Shown: positions 32,010-37,484, counted from the first letter of the stretch. The stretch: DNA of 64,000 bases from Candidatus Eiseniibacteriota bacterium (GCA_963717935.1 CAVQXP010000004.1:1952001-2016000); one strand, 5' to 3'. Notes: generated by a model not told the origin, from the sequence alone. Translations and numbers: made by a program.

Positions 32010-32396
32010 GTGACGCGCCGCCCCCGTCCGTCCGCCGGACCCGACCCCGTCGTCGTGCTGAGGGCCGCGGCCCGCGCCGCGCTCGCGAAGAAGGCGCACG
32101 ACGTGGTGGCGCTGGATCTGCGCGGGCTCAACGCGGTGTGCGAGCATTTCCTGCTGTGCTCGGCGTCGAGCGATGTCCAGGTGAAGGCCGTGGCGGAGAA
32201 CATCGAGGAAGTACTGCGCGAGCAGGGCCTGCGGCCGTGGCACGTCGAGGGGCTGAAGGGCCGCCGCTGGGTGCTGCTCGATTACGTGGGGCTCGTGATC
32301 CACGTGTTTCACGAGAAGACCCGCGAGTACTACCTGCTCGACCGGCTCTGGGGCGACGCGAGGAGCGTGGATCTTGGTCTGGAAGGAACTGACTGA
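32010..32396 (+). CDS. rsfS: Ribosome silencing factor
   Basis: KKAHDVVALDL, WVLLDY, IHVFHEKTREYYLLDRLWGDA. Confidence 0.93.
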   Translation: MTRRPRPSAGPDPVVVLRAAARAALAKKAHDVVALDLRGLNAVCEHFLLCSASSDVQVKAVAENIEEVLREQGLRPWHVEGLKGRRWVLLDYVGLVIHVFHEKTREYYLLDRLWGDARSVDLGLEGTD

Positions 32397-34113
32397 GGGT
32401 CTGGCCGCAGCGTTGCGCGAGACGGGACTGCACACCCCCGAGCGCATGGCGCGGCTCGAGCTCTCCATCCCGCGCGAGAGCGCGCACGGGGACTGGACCA
32501 CCAATCTCGCGCTCCTGATCGCGAGGGAAGTCCGGCGGCCGCCACGCGCGGTGGCCGAGGCCCTGGCGGCCGCGTTCCCACAGGATCCCTCGACCTTCGC
32601 GAGCGTCGAGGTCGCGGGCCCGGGGTTCGTGAACTTCCGCTACAGCGAGGCGTTCCTGGACCGCCTGCCCGGGCTCATCGTGGAGGCCGGCGGGGCGTTC
32701 GGCTCGAGCGTGGGCGGGGCGGGGGCGCGGGTGCTCGTGGAGTACGTGAGCGCGAACCCGACGGGGCCCCTGAACATCGTGAGCGCGCGGGCGGCCGCGG
32801 TGGGCGCGACGCTGGTGCGGCTGCTCAGGGCGACCGGGCACGACGCTGCGGGCGAGTTCTACGTCAACGACGCAGGCCGCCAGGTGGACCTGCTCGGCCA
32901 GTCGGTGGCGGCGCGCTTCGCCGAGGCCGCCGGGCTGGAGCGAGCGTTCCCGGTGGATGGCTACGAGGGCGAGTACGTGCGGGAGATCGCCGCTTCACTG
33001 CCCCCGGATGCCGCGCGCGCGGCCCTCGACGCTCCCGGAGGCGCGGCGTGGTTCCGCGACCAGGCCCTCGAACAGATGGTGCGCGAGCAGCGCCGGGACC
33101 TGGACGAGTACGGCGCCGAGTTCGCGCAATGGTTCCGGGAGTCGGAGCTGCACCGGTCGAAGGCGGTGGAGGAGACGCTGCGGGCGCTCGAGGCGCGCGG
33201 CATGACGTATCGCGCCCGGCTCCCGGAGGTGGATCGCACCGGGGACGGGGTGACCGGGGGCGCTGCGGAGCTCGAGGAGGCGACGTACCTGCGCACCGGG
33301 CGCTTCGGCGATGACAAGGACCGGGTGATCGTGCGCAGTGACGGCTCTCCCACGTACCTGCTCCCGGATCTCGCCTACCACCGCGACAAGCGAGGCCGTG
33401 GCTACGCGGTTGCCATCGACCTCTGGGGCCCCGACCACCACGCCTATGTCACCACCATGAAGGCGGCGCTGGCCGCGCTGGGGATCGAGGGCGACTTCCT
33501 GGAGGTGCTCATCGTGCAGCAGGTGAATCTGTGGGAGACGGGTGCGGACGGCCGCCGGGAGCAGGTCAAGATGAGCAAACGGCGTGGCCGGATCGTGATG
33601 CTGCGCGACCTGGTCGAGGACATCGGGGCCGAATGCGCGCGGTTCTTCTTCCTGATGCGCTCCACCAACGCCCACCTGGACTTCGACCTGGACGTGGCAC
33701 GGCGCCAGAACGACGAGAACCCGGCCTTCTACGTCCAGTACGCGCATGCGCGCATCGCGTCGATCCTGCGCTACGCCGCCGAGCGCGATCTGCGGCCCGC
33801 GGAGGCGGGTGCCCTGCGGCTCTCCGCCGCGGAAGAGGTGGCGCTGGCGCGGCGCCTGGCCGTCTTCCCGGAACTCGTGCGCGGGGCGGCGGCCGCGCGG
33901 GAGCCGCACCGCCTGCCTGCCTACCTCGTGGAGACGGCGGCGGAGTTCCACCGCTTCTATCACGCCTGCCGGGTGGTCGGGGAGGACACCGCCGTCACCC
34001 GTGGGCGACTCCTGCTCGCCGAGGCGGCCCGCACCGTGCTCGCGAACGGGCTCGCGCTGATGGGCGTGTCGGCCCCCGAGCGGATGGAGCGCGCGACGGA
34101 GGCCCCGGCATGA
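32374..34113 (+). CDS. argS: Arginine-tRNA ligase
   Basis: HGDWTTN, AGPGFVNF, EYVSANPTGPL, YVNDAGRQ, WGPDHH, KMSKR, YVQYAHAR, GVSAPERM. Confidence 0.96.
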   Translation: MVWKELTEGLAAALRETGLHTPERMARLELSIPRESAHGDWTTNLALLIAREVRRPPRAVAEALAAAFPQDPSTFASVEVAGPGFVNFRYSEAFLDRLPGLIVEAGGAFGSSVGGAGARVLVEYVSANPTGPLNIVSARAAAVGATLVRLLRATGHDAAGEFYVNDAGRQVDLLGQSVAARFAEAAGLERAFPVDGYEGEYVREIAASLPPDAARAALDAPGGAAWFRDQALEQMVREQRRDLDEYGAEFAQWFRESELHRSKAVEETLRALEARGMTYRARLPEVDRTGDGVTGGAAELEEATYLRTGRFGDDKDRVIVRSDGSPTYLLPDLAYHRDKRGRGYAVAIDLWGPDHHAYVTTMKAALAALGIEGDFLEVLIVQQVNLWETGADGRREQVKMSKRRGRIVMLRDLVEDIGAECARFFFLMRSTNAHLDFDLDVARRQNDENPAFYVQYAHARIASILRYAAERDLRPAEAGALRLSAAEEVALARRLAVFPELVRGAAAAREPHRLPAYLVETAAEFHRFYHACRVVGEDTAVTRGRLLLAEAARTVLANGLALMGVSAPERMERATEAPA

Positions 34114-35169: not shown

Positions 35170-35901
35170 GTGTTGGAAGACACGCGTATGTCATGGACGA
35201 CGGACGCTGAGAACGGGATTCGTGGCCTGCCGGACGTGGAGGACGCGAAGATCCTGGTCGAAGACGGTGAGATTCGCGAGGTCCACGTGATCTCGGCTGC
35301 CGGGAAACCGGCCAAGCTCATCGTGAAGGATGTGGTGGGTTTGATCTGGACCCGTTACAACCGGCGGATCGACCACCGCATCGTCGGGGTGGTTCGCATG
35401 CGGCCCCAGGCGAACGTCACTGCGAAGGCCGAGCCCTTGTCCGTCCCGGAAGAGCCCGCTCCGGTGCTGGAGGACGCGAGCCGCATCCGCTTCGGGAGCG
35501 TCAATCTCTACATGGATGGCGCGCGCGCCCAGGCGCAGGTGGAATTGCGCTGGAAGGGCGTGCTGCGCATGGGGAGCGCCTCCGGCTGGTGCTCGCGGGA
35601 GGGCGCCCACCGGCTGGTGGCGGCCGCGACCCTGACGGCGCTGCAGGAGTTCCTCGACGACGACGTCGCGCTGGGAGTCGAGGGGGTGGACGTGGTACGG
35701 ATGGGCGGGCACGAGGTCGCGATCGTGGGCCTCGCGCTGCTCACGCACCGGCAGGAGAAGCTCCTGACGGGTTGCTGCACGGTGGGCCGGGACCTCCCGC
35801 AGGCGGTCGTCCTGGCCACCCTCTCGGCTTTGAATCGTGTGATCGGCGGCCTGAAGACGAAGGAGCCGATCGAGTACATCTTGAGACCGGTATCGACCTA
35901 G
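35170..35901 (+). CDS. Hypothetical cytoplasmic protein; C-terminal domain resembles the LeuA allosteric (regulatory) domain
   Basis: TAAGGAG RBS; N-domain IREVHVI...KLIVKDV...IDHRIV; C-domain has a duplicated beta3-alpha pattern ending RDLPQAVVLATLSALNR. Confidence 0.8.
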   Translation: MLEDTRMSWTTDAENGIRGLPDVEDAKILVEDGEIREVHVISAAGKPAKLIVKDVVGLIWTRYNRRIDHRIVGVVRMRPQANVTAKAEPLSVPEEPAPVLEDASRIRFGSVNLYMDGARAQAQVELRWKGVLRMGSASGWCSREGAHRLVAAATLTALQEFLDDDVALGVEGVDVVRMGGHEVAIVGLALLTHRQEKLLTGCCTVGRDLPQAVVLATLSALNRVIGGLKTKEPIEYILRPVST

Positions 35902-35987
35902 GAGCCAGCGGAGCGAGAAGACACGCGAGAAGCGAAGCGGAGCCACCTGTCGGGAAGATGGACGTACCCGCAGAATCCCTTGCCAAG

Positions 35988-35997
35988 TAAGGAGGTG
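35988..35997 (+). promoter_or_regulatory. Full-length Shine-Dalgarno sequence
   Basis: TAAGGAGGTG; 8 nt from GGAGG to GTG 36004. Confidence 0.75.
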
Positions 35998-36003
35998 GGC
36001 TTC

Positions 36004-36054
36004 GTGGATCTCATTCTCGTGCTCTTGGAATTCTTCGGCCGCGCGGGCTGGTAA
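36004..36054 (+). CDS. 16-aa small peptide MDLILVLLEFFGRAGW
   Basis: GTG GAT CTC ATT CTC GTG CTC TTG GAA TTC TTC GGC CGC GCG GGC TGG TAA behind a perfect SD; no other ORF uses this SD. Confidence 0.65.
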   Translation: MDLILVLLEFFGRAGW

Positions 36055-36158
36055 TCTCGGTCCGCCTGTCCGGACCTGAGCAGTAAGCTCCGAAGTGGAT
36101 GCCGGTCTCTCCATCCTCCGCTTGCGGAACGACACCCGCCCTCCATGACCGACGACGC

Positions 36159-37484
36159 ATGAGCGACTCACCGGCTGCGATCCACCCGCGGGCCTTCCGC
36201 ATCTACTATGCGCTGGTGGTGCTGGCCGCTGCCGCCTTCTTCATACTGGCCACGCCCGCGGCCGGCCCGCCGAGGCTGGTGGCGCTCGGTGTCGTCCTGG
36301 CGTTGATGGTCCTGAGCGAGGCTCGCCCCGTGCCGCTACCCAGCGGCGGCTACGCGACCGGCAGCGCGGTGCTCGACCTCGCGTCGATCATCATCCTGGG
36401 TCCCGTGTGGACCGCCTGGGTGGACCTGGCGAGCACGGTGGTCGTGCAGGGGGTCATACTGCGCAGGCCCCTGGTGCGTGTGACGCACAACGTGGCCATC
36501 TTCGCGCTCACCTCGTTCGCGGCGGGGTACGCCTTTCTCGCTGCCGGCGGCCAGGTGGGCGCCCTGGCGTTCCCGCGGCACATCGTGCCCCTGTTGGTGT
36601 GCGGGGGCGTCTACTTCCTCTGCAACTCGGCCTTCGTCTCGACCGTGCTCGGGCTCACCGCCGGCCCCGGCCCGTGGCGGATCTGGCAGCGCAACTTCCT
36701 GCAGGGAATCCTCCACCACCTCTCCTTCGTCGCGCTCGGCACGCTTGTGGCTGTGGTCTACTTCAGCGCCGGGCCCTGGGGACTCGTGCTGGTGGGCATC
36801 CCGTTCCTGGTCGCGCGGCACTCGTTCGGCGTGTACATGGAGATCCGCGCCGACCTCAAGGACTTCGTACGTGCCCTGTCCGAGGTGTTGGAGGAAGTGG
36901 ACCCGTACACCCGGCACCACTCGCACCGGGTGGCCCAGTACACGGTGCGGCTGGCGCGCGGGATGAGGCTCTCCGAGCGCGAGGTCGAGGAGATCGAGTA
37001 CGCGGCCCTGGTGCACGATCTGGGCAAGATCGGTCCGCAGCACCAGCATATCCTGCAGAAGCCGGGCTCGCTCTCGCACGAGGAGCAGCGCACGCTGCGC
37101 GCGCACCCGGCCGCCGGGGCCGAGATCGTGGCGCGGGTGCGGGCGCTGCGGCGCTCGGCCGAGATCGTGCGGACGCATCACGAGCGGCCCGACGGGCAGG
37201 GCTATCCGCTCGGCCTGCGCGCGGCGGACGTGCCCGTGGGGGCGCGCATCCTGAACGTCTCGGACGCCTTCGACGCGATGACCTCGGACCGCCCGTACCG
37301 GCGTGCGCTGTCGGTGGTTGCCGCGCTGGAGGAACTGCGGCGCGGCGCGGACTCCCAGTTCGACCGCACGGTGGTGGAGTGCCTGCTGCGCCTGCAGGCG
37401 GCCGGGCAGTTCCCCCTCATCCCGAGCCCCACGAGCGAGGATCTCCAGTTGCTCCGCCTGAAGCCCCGCGAGGCCGAGGGCTGA
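36159..37484 (+). CDS. Membrane-sensor (multi-TM, MASE9-like) HD-GYP cyclic-dinucleotide phosphodiesterase
   Basis: About 7-8 hydrophobic helices, then DPYTRHHSHRV, HDLGK, HHERPDGQGYPLGL, DAFDAMTSDRPYR. Confidence 0.92.
   Translation: MSDSPAAIHPRAFRIYYALVVLAAAAFFILATPAAGPPRLVALGVVLALMVLSEARPVPLPSGGYATGSAVLDLASIIILGPVWTAWVDLASTVVVQGVILRRPLVRVTHNVAIFALTSFAAGYAFLAAGGQVGALAFPRHIVPLLVCGGVYFLCNSAFVSTVLGLTAGPGPWRIWQRNFLQGILHHLSFVALGTLVAVVYFSAGPWGLVLVGIPFLVARHSFGVYMEIRADLKDFVRALSEVLEEVDPYTRHHSHRVAQYTVRLARGMRLSEREVEEIEYAALVHDLGKIGPQHQHILQKPGSLSHEEQRTLRAHPAAGAEIVARVRALRRSAEIVRTHHERPDGQGYPLGLRAADVPVGARILNVSDAFDAMTSDRPYRRALSVVAALEELRRGADSQFDRTVVECLLRLQAAGQFPLIPSPTSEDLQLLRLKPREAEG

Follow-up and report, generated by a model that had tools for sequence, protein, structure and literature searches.

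A conserved, apparently undescribed micro-gene within a predicted structured RNA domain upstream of an HD-GYP gene in Candidatus Eisenbacteria

Gene neighbourhood of the small ORF

The window, i.e. the whole stretch of 64,000 nucleotides that was analysed, carries in the gap between two longer genes a small open reading frame (sORF) whose 16 sense codons translate, from window position 36004 on, as V(M)DLILVLLEFFGRAGW (Table 1). All nearby genes lie on the plus strand. The genes argS, a pfkB-type kinase gene and the gene for a protein that we call P0001 precede the sORF, and the gene for a membrane HD-GYP domain protein follows it, with purM as the next gene beyond. The gap between P0001 and the HD-GYP gene measures 257 nt. 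None of these five neighbours of the sORF is an exporter, maturase, protease or receptor gene. Opposite P0001 and the sORF, the minus strand bears an ORF of 326 aa (window 35191-36171) without a Pfam match, which probably arises as a shadow ORF from the high GC content of the coding strand.

Table 1. Features of the locus in window coordinates; RNA elements and their pairing partners are predicted.
Feature	Position	Strand	Remarks
argS	32374-34113	+	Neighbour
pfkB-type kinase	ends 35039	+	Neighbour
P0001, 237 aa	35188..35901	+	ATG 35188; the listed ORF begins at GTG 35170
P1 5' arm GAGACCGGTATC	35883-35894	+	Pairs with 36098-36109; in this clade overlaps the last P0001 codons
P2 5' strand GGAG	35901..35904	+	Pairs with CTCC 36088-36091; overlaps the last base of the P0001 stop
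Invariant motif 1 AGCGGAGCG	35907..35915	+	From the alignment
Invariant motif 2 AGCGAAGCG	35931..35939	+	RNAalifold: GC/GC pairs with motif 1 around a 3x3 purine internal loop
Anti-SD strand CCACC	35943..35947	+	Pairs with GGTGG 35994-35998; CCCACC in most relatives
Variable hairpin CTGTCGGG...CCCGCAG	35947..35973	+	Enclosed by the anti-SD pairing
Shine-Dalgarno TAAGGAGGTG	35988-35997	+	AAGGAGGTG invariant across the 58 aligned rows of alignment A3
sORF	36004..36054	+	GTG start, 16 codons (MDLILVLLEFFGRAGW), TAA stop at 36052-36054
Hairpin CTCGGTCCG...CGGACCTGAG	36056..36080	+	2 nt past the stop codon; sequence varies among relatives
P2 3' strand CTCC	36088..36091	+	RNAalifold and pair counts
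P1 3' arm GATGCCGGTCTC	36098..36109	+	Pairs with 35883-35894
C-rich, G-poor tract	36110..36158	+	Spacer from P1 to the HD-GYP start; C 0.47 and G 0.20 in the window
Membrane HD-GYP domain protein, 441 aa	36159..37484	+	ATG 36159; Pfam HD_5 E 9e-35

An earlier note on this DNA, made from the sequence alone, had described a perfect Shine-Dalgarno sequence (SD) at optimal spacing before the GTG at 36004, followed by 16 codons and a TAA, and the sequence is exactly so, with the GTG 8 nt past GGAGG. The same note had called the stretch richer in AT than its surroundings. The GC content is indeed lower at 35950-36099 (0.58-0.59) than in the flanking genes (0.69-0.78), but the lowering spans the entire intergenic stretch and is no property of the sORF alone. 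The exact 9-mer AAGGAGGTG has a single copy in the 64 kb, and at least one copy also turns up in 24 of 100 shuffles; judged from the window alone, the SD together with the sORF is within what chance would give. We hold the sORF to be real because of comparative evidence, i.e. the frame and the SD kept among relatives, and not because of window statistics.

For the upstream protein P0001, databases contain 757 relatives with an E of 0.001 or lower; it belongs to no family in Pfam or NCBIfam, and matches no sequence in the PDB. In its AlphaFold model (mean pLDDT 80), the C-terminal half looks like the amino-acid-binding (allosteric) domain of LeuA or citramalate synthase standing by itself, with a Foldseek E of 5e-5 to LeuA entries and a TM-score of 0.63 normalised to 3f6h_B; the ESM Atlas cluster of the P0001 family bears the same automatic name (LeuA-allosteric-like). 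A promoter scan of both strands of the window found no sigma-70-type site, a consensus that may not suit this phylum, and a terminator scan gave two terminator-like hits, both within the HD-GYP gene.

Conservation of the small ORF among related loci

Scanning the contigs of one genome per species with an alignment of the P0001 family gave 60 related loci, of which 40 are labelled Candidatus Eisenbacteria, 16 'uncultured bacterium' or 'bacterium', and four otherwise. P0001 stands upstream of the sORF in every locus because it was the search query; the order P0001, sORF, HD-GYP is fixed. Two of the 60 loci have no sequence at the site, one contig stopping at the SD (L042) and the other within P0001 (L060). 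In all 58 loci with sequence there, as in the window itself, the sORF lies behind an invariant AAGGAGGTG. The C-terminal pattern found it in 50 of the 60 loci, and eight more are close variants (GRASW, SKAGW, TKAGW). The sORF in relatives ends in [G/S/T]-[K/R]-A-G-W-stop.

The 59 sORFs, counting that of the window, begin with GTG (31) or ATG (28) and end, all at one position, with TAA (46), TAG (8) or TGA (5). The distance from GGAGG to the start codon is 7-11 nt in the 57 scored rows. Most of the sORFs encode 16 aa (44) or 17 aa (12), with lengths of 12, 18 and 25 aa found once each, and all the length differences are whole codons. Among the 43 distinct 16-codon sequences, entropy at the three codon positions is 0.89, 0.30 and 1.10, position 2 being the most constrained; Ala14 is encoded by GCG (12), GCC (19) and GCT (11), Gly15 by GGC (28) and GGT (14), and Trp16 is invariant. 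Residue 13 alternates between Lys (AAG) and Arg (CGN), amino-acid swaps are conservative, and conservation ends at the start and stop codons, dropping to ∼1.9 bits right past the stop. Two antisense frames are also mostly open across the sORF, with stops in 6 and 5 of the 59 loci; the plus-strand frame is taken to be the coding one because the SD, the starts, the three alternative stops, the whole-codon length changes and the conservative swaps fit it alone.

From these patterns we conclude that the sORF is under purifying selection as coding sequence, and comparison shows 36004-36054 as a protein-coding micro-gene kept across the whole lineage, most of it labelled Candidatus Eisenbacteria. 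Conservation of the frame, the SD and the C-terminal Trp with synonymous variation was the test that the earlier note had itself proposed, and the outcome favours the sORF (58/58 loci). Its view of the small ORF as real is likewise borne out by the relatives: the sORF looks translated, and its strong SD is under selection. The two length outliers, of 12 aa (MDILVLLGKAGW, L047 4858-4896) and 25 aa (MSTLLAVIAGSFARNVIILFGKSGW, L024 4145-4222), keep the SD and the C-terminal motif; they differ in N-terminal length and retain the C-terminal G-K-A/S-G-W.

The sORF family appears to be undescribed. Literature searches on small ORFs of Eisenbacteria found nothing, and those combining leader peptide, HD-GYP and Rho-dependent found nothing on this system. 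Of the matches listed for sORF peptide motifs, none concerns this peptide in the portions of text available.

The encoded peptide

The consensus of the peptide is M-D-L-I-L-E-L-(V/I/L)-(E/N)-(F/L)-(F/L)-G-(K/R)-A-G-W. It is conserved over its entire length, rather than as a core behind a variable leader, and most strongly in the last five residues, which abut the stop codon. The hydrophobic moment peaks at 90-100 degrees per residue, and amphipathicity exceeds that of 2000 shuffles per peptide by a mean z of 1.85, with p <0.05 in 29 of the 50 distinct peptides and <0.2 in 45 of them. Net charge is -1 or -2 in 42 of these 50. Among the 36 distinct 16-mers, residue 2 is Asp or Glu in 32, and Lys takes the place of Arg in 23. 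The hydrophobic stretch comprises residues 3-11 (∼9 residues), broken at positions 6 and 9 by Glu or Asp, and there is no helix long enough to span a membrane as in KdpF or CydX. The peptide has no signal sequence and no N-terminal signal-like basic segment. We predict an acidic amphipathic helix that carries a short tail, rich in Gly and ending in Trp; the helix is inferred to cover residues 2-11, with the tail being G-K/R-A-G-W.

A structured RNA domain around the small ORF

The sORF lies within an RNA domain of ∼230 nt, closed by a long-range helix (P1) that covaries. An alignment of 59 regions revealed nucleotide elements that are conserved as much as the sORF or more, namely two copies of AGCGRAGCG, CCCACC, the SD, CUCC, and GRUGYCGGUCYC, the last of which is the reverse complement of GAGACCGRCAYC, found ∼120 nt before the sORF. 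In the 64-kb window, AGCGRAGCG has only its two matches within the domain. The best uninterrupted P1 duplex has a mean of 12.3 pairs (range 8-18) in the 59 sequences, compared with a mean of 7.5 pairs both for shuffled sequence and for a different downstream region. It sits at a constant position in 58 of the 59, the exception (L027) having the same helix with one A-C mismatch.

RNAalifold recovers P1, a second helix P2 (GGAG:CUCC), the pairing of the AGCG motifs, and CACC:GGUG at the 3' edge of the SD, with almost no pairing within the sORF. In the 58-sequence alignment, 88.3% of cells are paired, against 36-49% with the partners slid, and both sides have changed in 10 of the 15 pairs of P1 and 3 of the 4 of P2. 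The covariation score of 0.196 compares with 0.132 in shuffles and was reached by none of 500. The AGCG pairing lacks covariation because both motifs are invariant, while the substitutions seen in the anti-SD strand of relatives all preserve G-U pairs. From motif 2 to the SD the RNA folds more stably than shuffles (mean z -1.87; z < -1 in 48/58 loci), CCCACC pairing with GGUGGG in the folds shown. The hairpin past the stop codon is weakly supported family-wide (mean z -0.70; < -1 in 26/58 loci). Folded as a single sequence, the whole intergenic region is no more stable than its shuffles (z = +0.79), so the RNA structure is apparent from comparison only. Pairing between the purine-rich leader and the pyrimidine-rich sORF is, by eye, inconsistent across loci, and it is absent from the RNAalifold structure.

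A search with a profile of the domain (nhmmer) found exactly one copy per locus in 501,409 bases. Rfam 15 gave no match at the gathering score in the window and none at E up to 10 in 35700-36400, and ARAGORN found no tRNA or tmRNA genes. With strong covariation support and no Rfam family, the ∼230-nt domain is best regarded as a candidate for an undescribed structured RNA. The invariance of the SD is partly due to RNA pairing. Both SD sequestration and long-range 5'-3' pairing are present in the predicted structure, which points to gated translation of the sORF. The earlier note had taken so strong an SD to imply high translation; this is not supported, since the SD pairs with the upstream CCCACC inside a closed RNA domain and is therefore no simple sign of high translation.

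Several variations on this arrangement were seen among the relatives. In three loci (L008, L009, L011) and in the proteins P0088, P0099 and P0112, a sense codon replaces the P0001 stop (compare window 35899-35917), and the read-through forms of P0001 run across P2 and the first AGCG motif to end in ...QEASGAKRR. As the nucleotides are conserved whether coding or not, the RNA element appears to constrain the tail of P0001. In one clade (L029, L034, L039-L041, L050, L053), the P1 5' arm CGGGAC can pair locally with a nearby downstream GUCCCG (e.g. GGGACCGGCAACGTCCC); such a local hairpin excludes P1 and could act as a switch. Members of the L020-L056 group, in which P1 lies in intergenic DNA, have a GC-rich hairpin that lacks a U-tract (e.g. 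GGGCGCGC...GCGCGCCC) immediately past the stop codon of P0001. This hairpin could be a terminator or a stabiliser; P1 starts 15-25 nt past it.

The downstream HD-GYP gene and its spacer

The gene downstream of the sORF encodes the sequences HDLGK and HHERPDGQGYP, both invariant in 26 orthologues. By its HD_5 domain and its HD and HHE...GYP signatures, its product would be an HD-GYP phosphodiesterase. An HD-GYP orthologue lies 81-186 nt past the sORF stop, on the same strand, in all 56 loci with enough sequence; two further contigs end 228 and 332 nt past the sORF, too short for placing the gene. The orthologues share 52-93% identity in the segment that aligns best.

Between P1 and the HD-GYP start, the tract in relatives averages 53 nt with C 0.42 and G 0.23, C exceeding G in 54 of the 56 loci, and the leader upstream of the SD is purine-rich in 56/56. 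In many loci the HD-GYP start codon is preceded, at a distance of 4-6 nt, by an SD-like AGGA or GGGA. In many distant loci (alignment A2, columns ∼455-490; L029, L040, L050, L053), the sequence CACGAT-AGGGAC-ATCGTG spans this start, forming a hairpin of 6 bp whose loop resembles an SD and whose 3' arm contains the GTG start codon; in the window this place has just CATG...CATG.

Possible roles of the peptide

The reading that we favour, tentatively and at rather less than an even chance, is that of a genuine micropeptide acting on the HD-GYP enzyme, with the RNA as the gate to its synthesis. The product, a free peptide of 16 residues, would bind to the membrane HD-GYP phosphodiesterase encoded next to it and, in the manner of a small accessory or regulatory subunit, modulate this enzyme. 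The RNA fold would set the amount of peptide made, a near-perfect SD would be required to outcompete the sequestering junction, and P1 and P2, which close the domain, may also be the mark of a site for processing or stabilisation, making expression of the peptide independent of that of its neighbours. In favour of such a free micropeptide we would count the presence of the sORF in all loci with sequence at the site, its varying starts, stops and lengths, the codon periodicity, conservation that ends at the start and stop codons, the amphipathicity apparently selected along the whole peptide, the synteny and the predicted RNA domain. On the other side, a length of 16 residues is at the lower limit of the sizes known for functional small proteins of bacteria, or beneath it, and in model bacteria ORFs so short are mostly leader peptides. 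Some 9 hydrophobic residues do not suffice for a transmembrane helix, and the acidic face of the peptide argues against simple membrane binding. The 12-aa and 25-aa variants keep the C-terminus, which fits a C-terminal arrest motif better than a binding helix of fixed length. A cis-regulatory leader would account just as well for the fixed position ∼100 nt upstream of the HD-GYP gene, the elaborate RNA structure and the C-rich tract.

A complex prediction with the HD-GYP protein, P0001 and the peptide scored 0.44 (best of three controls 0.00), a result graded as weak support and belonging to a score class in which predictions err more often than not, except where the pairing was already a probable one. 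Of 157 solved complexes, 116 reached the mark for this score, as did 2 of 215 mismatched pairs; at a score of 0.60 or less these were only 18 of the 157, and both passing mismatches. This calibration is rough here, as our own alignments were used and no calibration chain was under 30 residues. The runs agree in at least 57% of contacts, with partner pLDDT of at least 49. When the HD-GYP protein was replaced, the score fell to 0.00 with P0001 still present, and we read this loss as the peptide having been placed on the HD-GYP protein. The prediction thus lends weak support to a contact between peptide and HD-GYP protein and, equally weakly, to a small regulator of a membrane protein, which the earlier note had offered as one of two alternatives. 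In a more elaborate version, which we think improbable, the RNA would sense a small ligand or the LeuA-allosteric-like protein and switch on a 16-residue cofactor that controls the membrane HD-GYP enzyme. It would belong to an undescribed RNA class with the AGCGRAGCG purine-rich internal loop, an SD-sequestering three-way junction and a covarying closing helix.

Somewhat unlikely, though to be taken seriously, is a cis-acting leader or arrest peptide, i.e. an sORF translated only to regulate expression of the HD-GYP gene. The nascent ...F-F/L-G-K/R-A-G-W might slow release at the stop codon from within the exit tunnel or, alternatively, translation of the sORF might remodel the RNA domain; in both cases this would decide how far Rho or RNases can reach the C-rich tract, or whether the HD-GYP start region opens. 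The location of so tiny an ORF, on the same strand and at its 81-186 nt from the HD-GYP gene in 56/56 loci, speaks for a leader, as do the peak of conservation in the last five residues right up to the stop codon, an N-terminus that varies so that lengths range from 12 to 25 aa while the C-terminus is retained, the embedding in a conserved RNA structure, and the rut-like composition of the tract that follows. The hairpin past the sORF begins a median of 1.5 nt beyond the stop codon, so near that a terminating ribosome would melt it. PepNL (PMC11890864) and TnaC (PMC8429421) are precedents in the portions of those accounts available. Yet neither RNAalifold nor inspection by eye gave a conserved alternative pairing to a terminator or to the HD-GYP start, and the arms of P1 and P2 lie at least 35 nt from the ends of the sORF, so that its translation should not open them. 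That all three stop codons are in use argues against a release-factor-specific signal, the helical amphipathic periodicity of residues 2-13 has no obvious role inside the ribosome, and with an SD-like AGGA or GGGA before its start in many loci the HD-GYP gene need not depend on coupling.

The remaining explanations we regard as less probable still. A gated, membrane-active peptide resembling a type I toxin, left untranslated until processing or a change in an antisense RNA, and silenced by SD sequestration and 5'-3' closure of an mRNA of ∼230 nt, is distinctly unlikely. Its appeal is the architecture, which matches that of the Helicobacter pylori AapA1 full-length mRNA (PMC5416894), as far as the accessible part of that paper describes it. 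A closing helix, a paired SD and a hydrophobic peptide are all found here. Type I systems are patchily distributed, however, and AapA1 has 30 aa, whereas the present element occurs in a single copy per locus, strictly syntenic and co-oriented between two conserved genes whose proteins are only 44-87% identical, and its product, with 16 aa and a net charge of -1 or -2, is shorter and more acidic than AapA1 and other type I toxins. We identified no antisense gene, and no promoter-like site of sigma-70 type on either strand. An acidic 16-mer inherited phylum-wide, with one copy per locus and strict synteny, argues against membership among the membrane-spanning, patchy or multicopy type I toxins. 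The other alternative of the earlier note, a precursor of a secreted signalling peptide (or of a RiPP), could appeal to a short, hydrophobic product with a conserved C-terminal Gly...Trp, but has very little probability: there is no signal sequence, residue 2 is acidic in most of the 16-mers where a signal-like basic segment would be expected, the whole peptide is conserved and not just a core after a variable leader, and the neighbours are housekeeping genes and the HD-GYP gene, with no maturation, export, protease or receptor genes adjacent. It is just as improbable that the sORF is incidental to a structured non-coding RNA and untranslated, even though the flanks (the two AGCGRAGCG motifs, CCCACC, the P1 arms) are conserved as much as the sORF or more and two antisense frames are mostly open. 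Conservation has a three-base periodicity with position 2 most constrained, amino-acid swaps are conservative, including K(AAG)/R(CGN), and lengths change in whole codons; the start codon always keeps its distance of 7-11 nt from GGAGG, three different stop codons occupy one position, and RNAalifold finds nearly no pairing within the sORF.

Taken together, the locus holds a real, conserved and apparently undescribed micro-gene inside an undescribed, putatively structured RNA domain. As for the peptide itself, a cofactor of the HD-GYP protein is possible without reaching the level of an expectation, and a leader peptide of the HD-GYP gene is rather doubtful. If functional, the peptide would rank with the shortest conserved gene products of bacteria and have a link to cyclic-dinucleotide signalling in a phylum not yet cultivated; as a leader, it would be a new regulator of an HD-GYP gene that works through the nascent chain or through translation. 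Under either reading there is an RNA domain with strong covariation and no Rfam family. Were the RNA to act as a sensor as outlined above, sensor protein, RNA switch, micropeptide and enzyme would form a module universal to one phylum. The sORF is shorter than the minimum lengths set for the ORF track and by the protein tools used here, and a perfect SD beside a sub-threshold ORF can mark a real gene.

Comparison with known systems

KdpF (kdpFABC), CydX (cydABX) and MgrB (which acts on PhoQ) are small proteins encoded beside the membrane complex that they bind, and have 29-47 aa with a full transmembrane helix. The present peptide resembles them in being hydrophobic and encoded beside a membrane protein, its predicted contact with the HD-GYP protein being weakly supported, and differs in its ∼9 hydrophobic residues and its acidic face. 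Dual-function RNAs such as Staphylococcus aureus RNAIII with hld, and SgrS with SgrT, offer a parallel as structured RNAs that also encode a short amphipathic peptide; for the element described here, neither a transcript of its own nor base-pairing targets are in evidence. The tail G-R-A-G-W is also superficially like the R-A-G-P of SecM. In the accessible parts of the literature, SecM- and RAPP-type arrest motifs (RAGP, RAPP) end in Pro (PMC10951299, PMC10951233, PMC7897499, PMC10987492). Membership in this class was rejected, as the peptide has no Pro, Lys replaces Arg in 23 of the 36 distinct 16-mers, and the gene downstream is HD-GYP and not Sec or YidC.

Among leader peptides, the 14-residue uORF product PepNL of Escherichia coli undergoes arrest at its own stop codon and controls pepN, the gene downstream (PMC11890864), and TnaC is a 24-residue Trp-sensing leader (PMC8429421), as described in the sections of these papers available. 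To that extent the sORF is like both, being a very short ORF upstream on the same strand, conserved up to the stop and next to a C-rich spacer. Unlike these leaders, which serve catabolic enzymes, it precedes a gene for a c-di-GMP-type phosphodiesterase. It further differs in using all three stops, in encoding a predicted acidic amphipathic helix, and in lying within a long-range helix.

By analogy, the RNA architecture most resembles that of type I toxin mRNAs such as aapA1; hok/sok is another type I toxin mRNA with 5'-3' closure. The element is, in contrast to aapA1/IsoA1, single-copy and vertically inherited within an operon-like row of genes, and its peptide is an acidic one of 16 aa. What is accessible of the H. 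pylori work describes an AapA1 full-length mRNA of 253 nt, with a long-distance 5'-3' interaction and a sequestered SD, that is activated by 3' processing (PMC5416894), and on that account the two would have in common an RNA of ∼230-250 nt whose ends pair, whose SD is sequestered and which encodes a small hydrophobic peptide.
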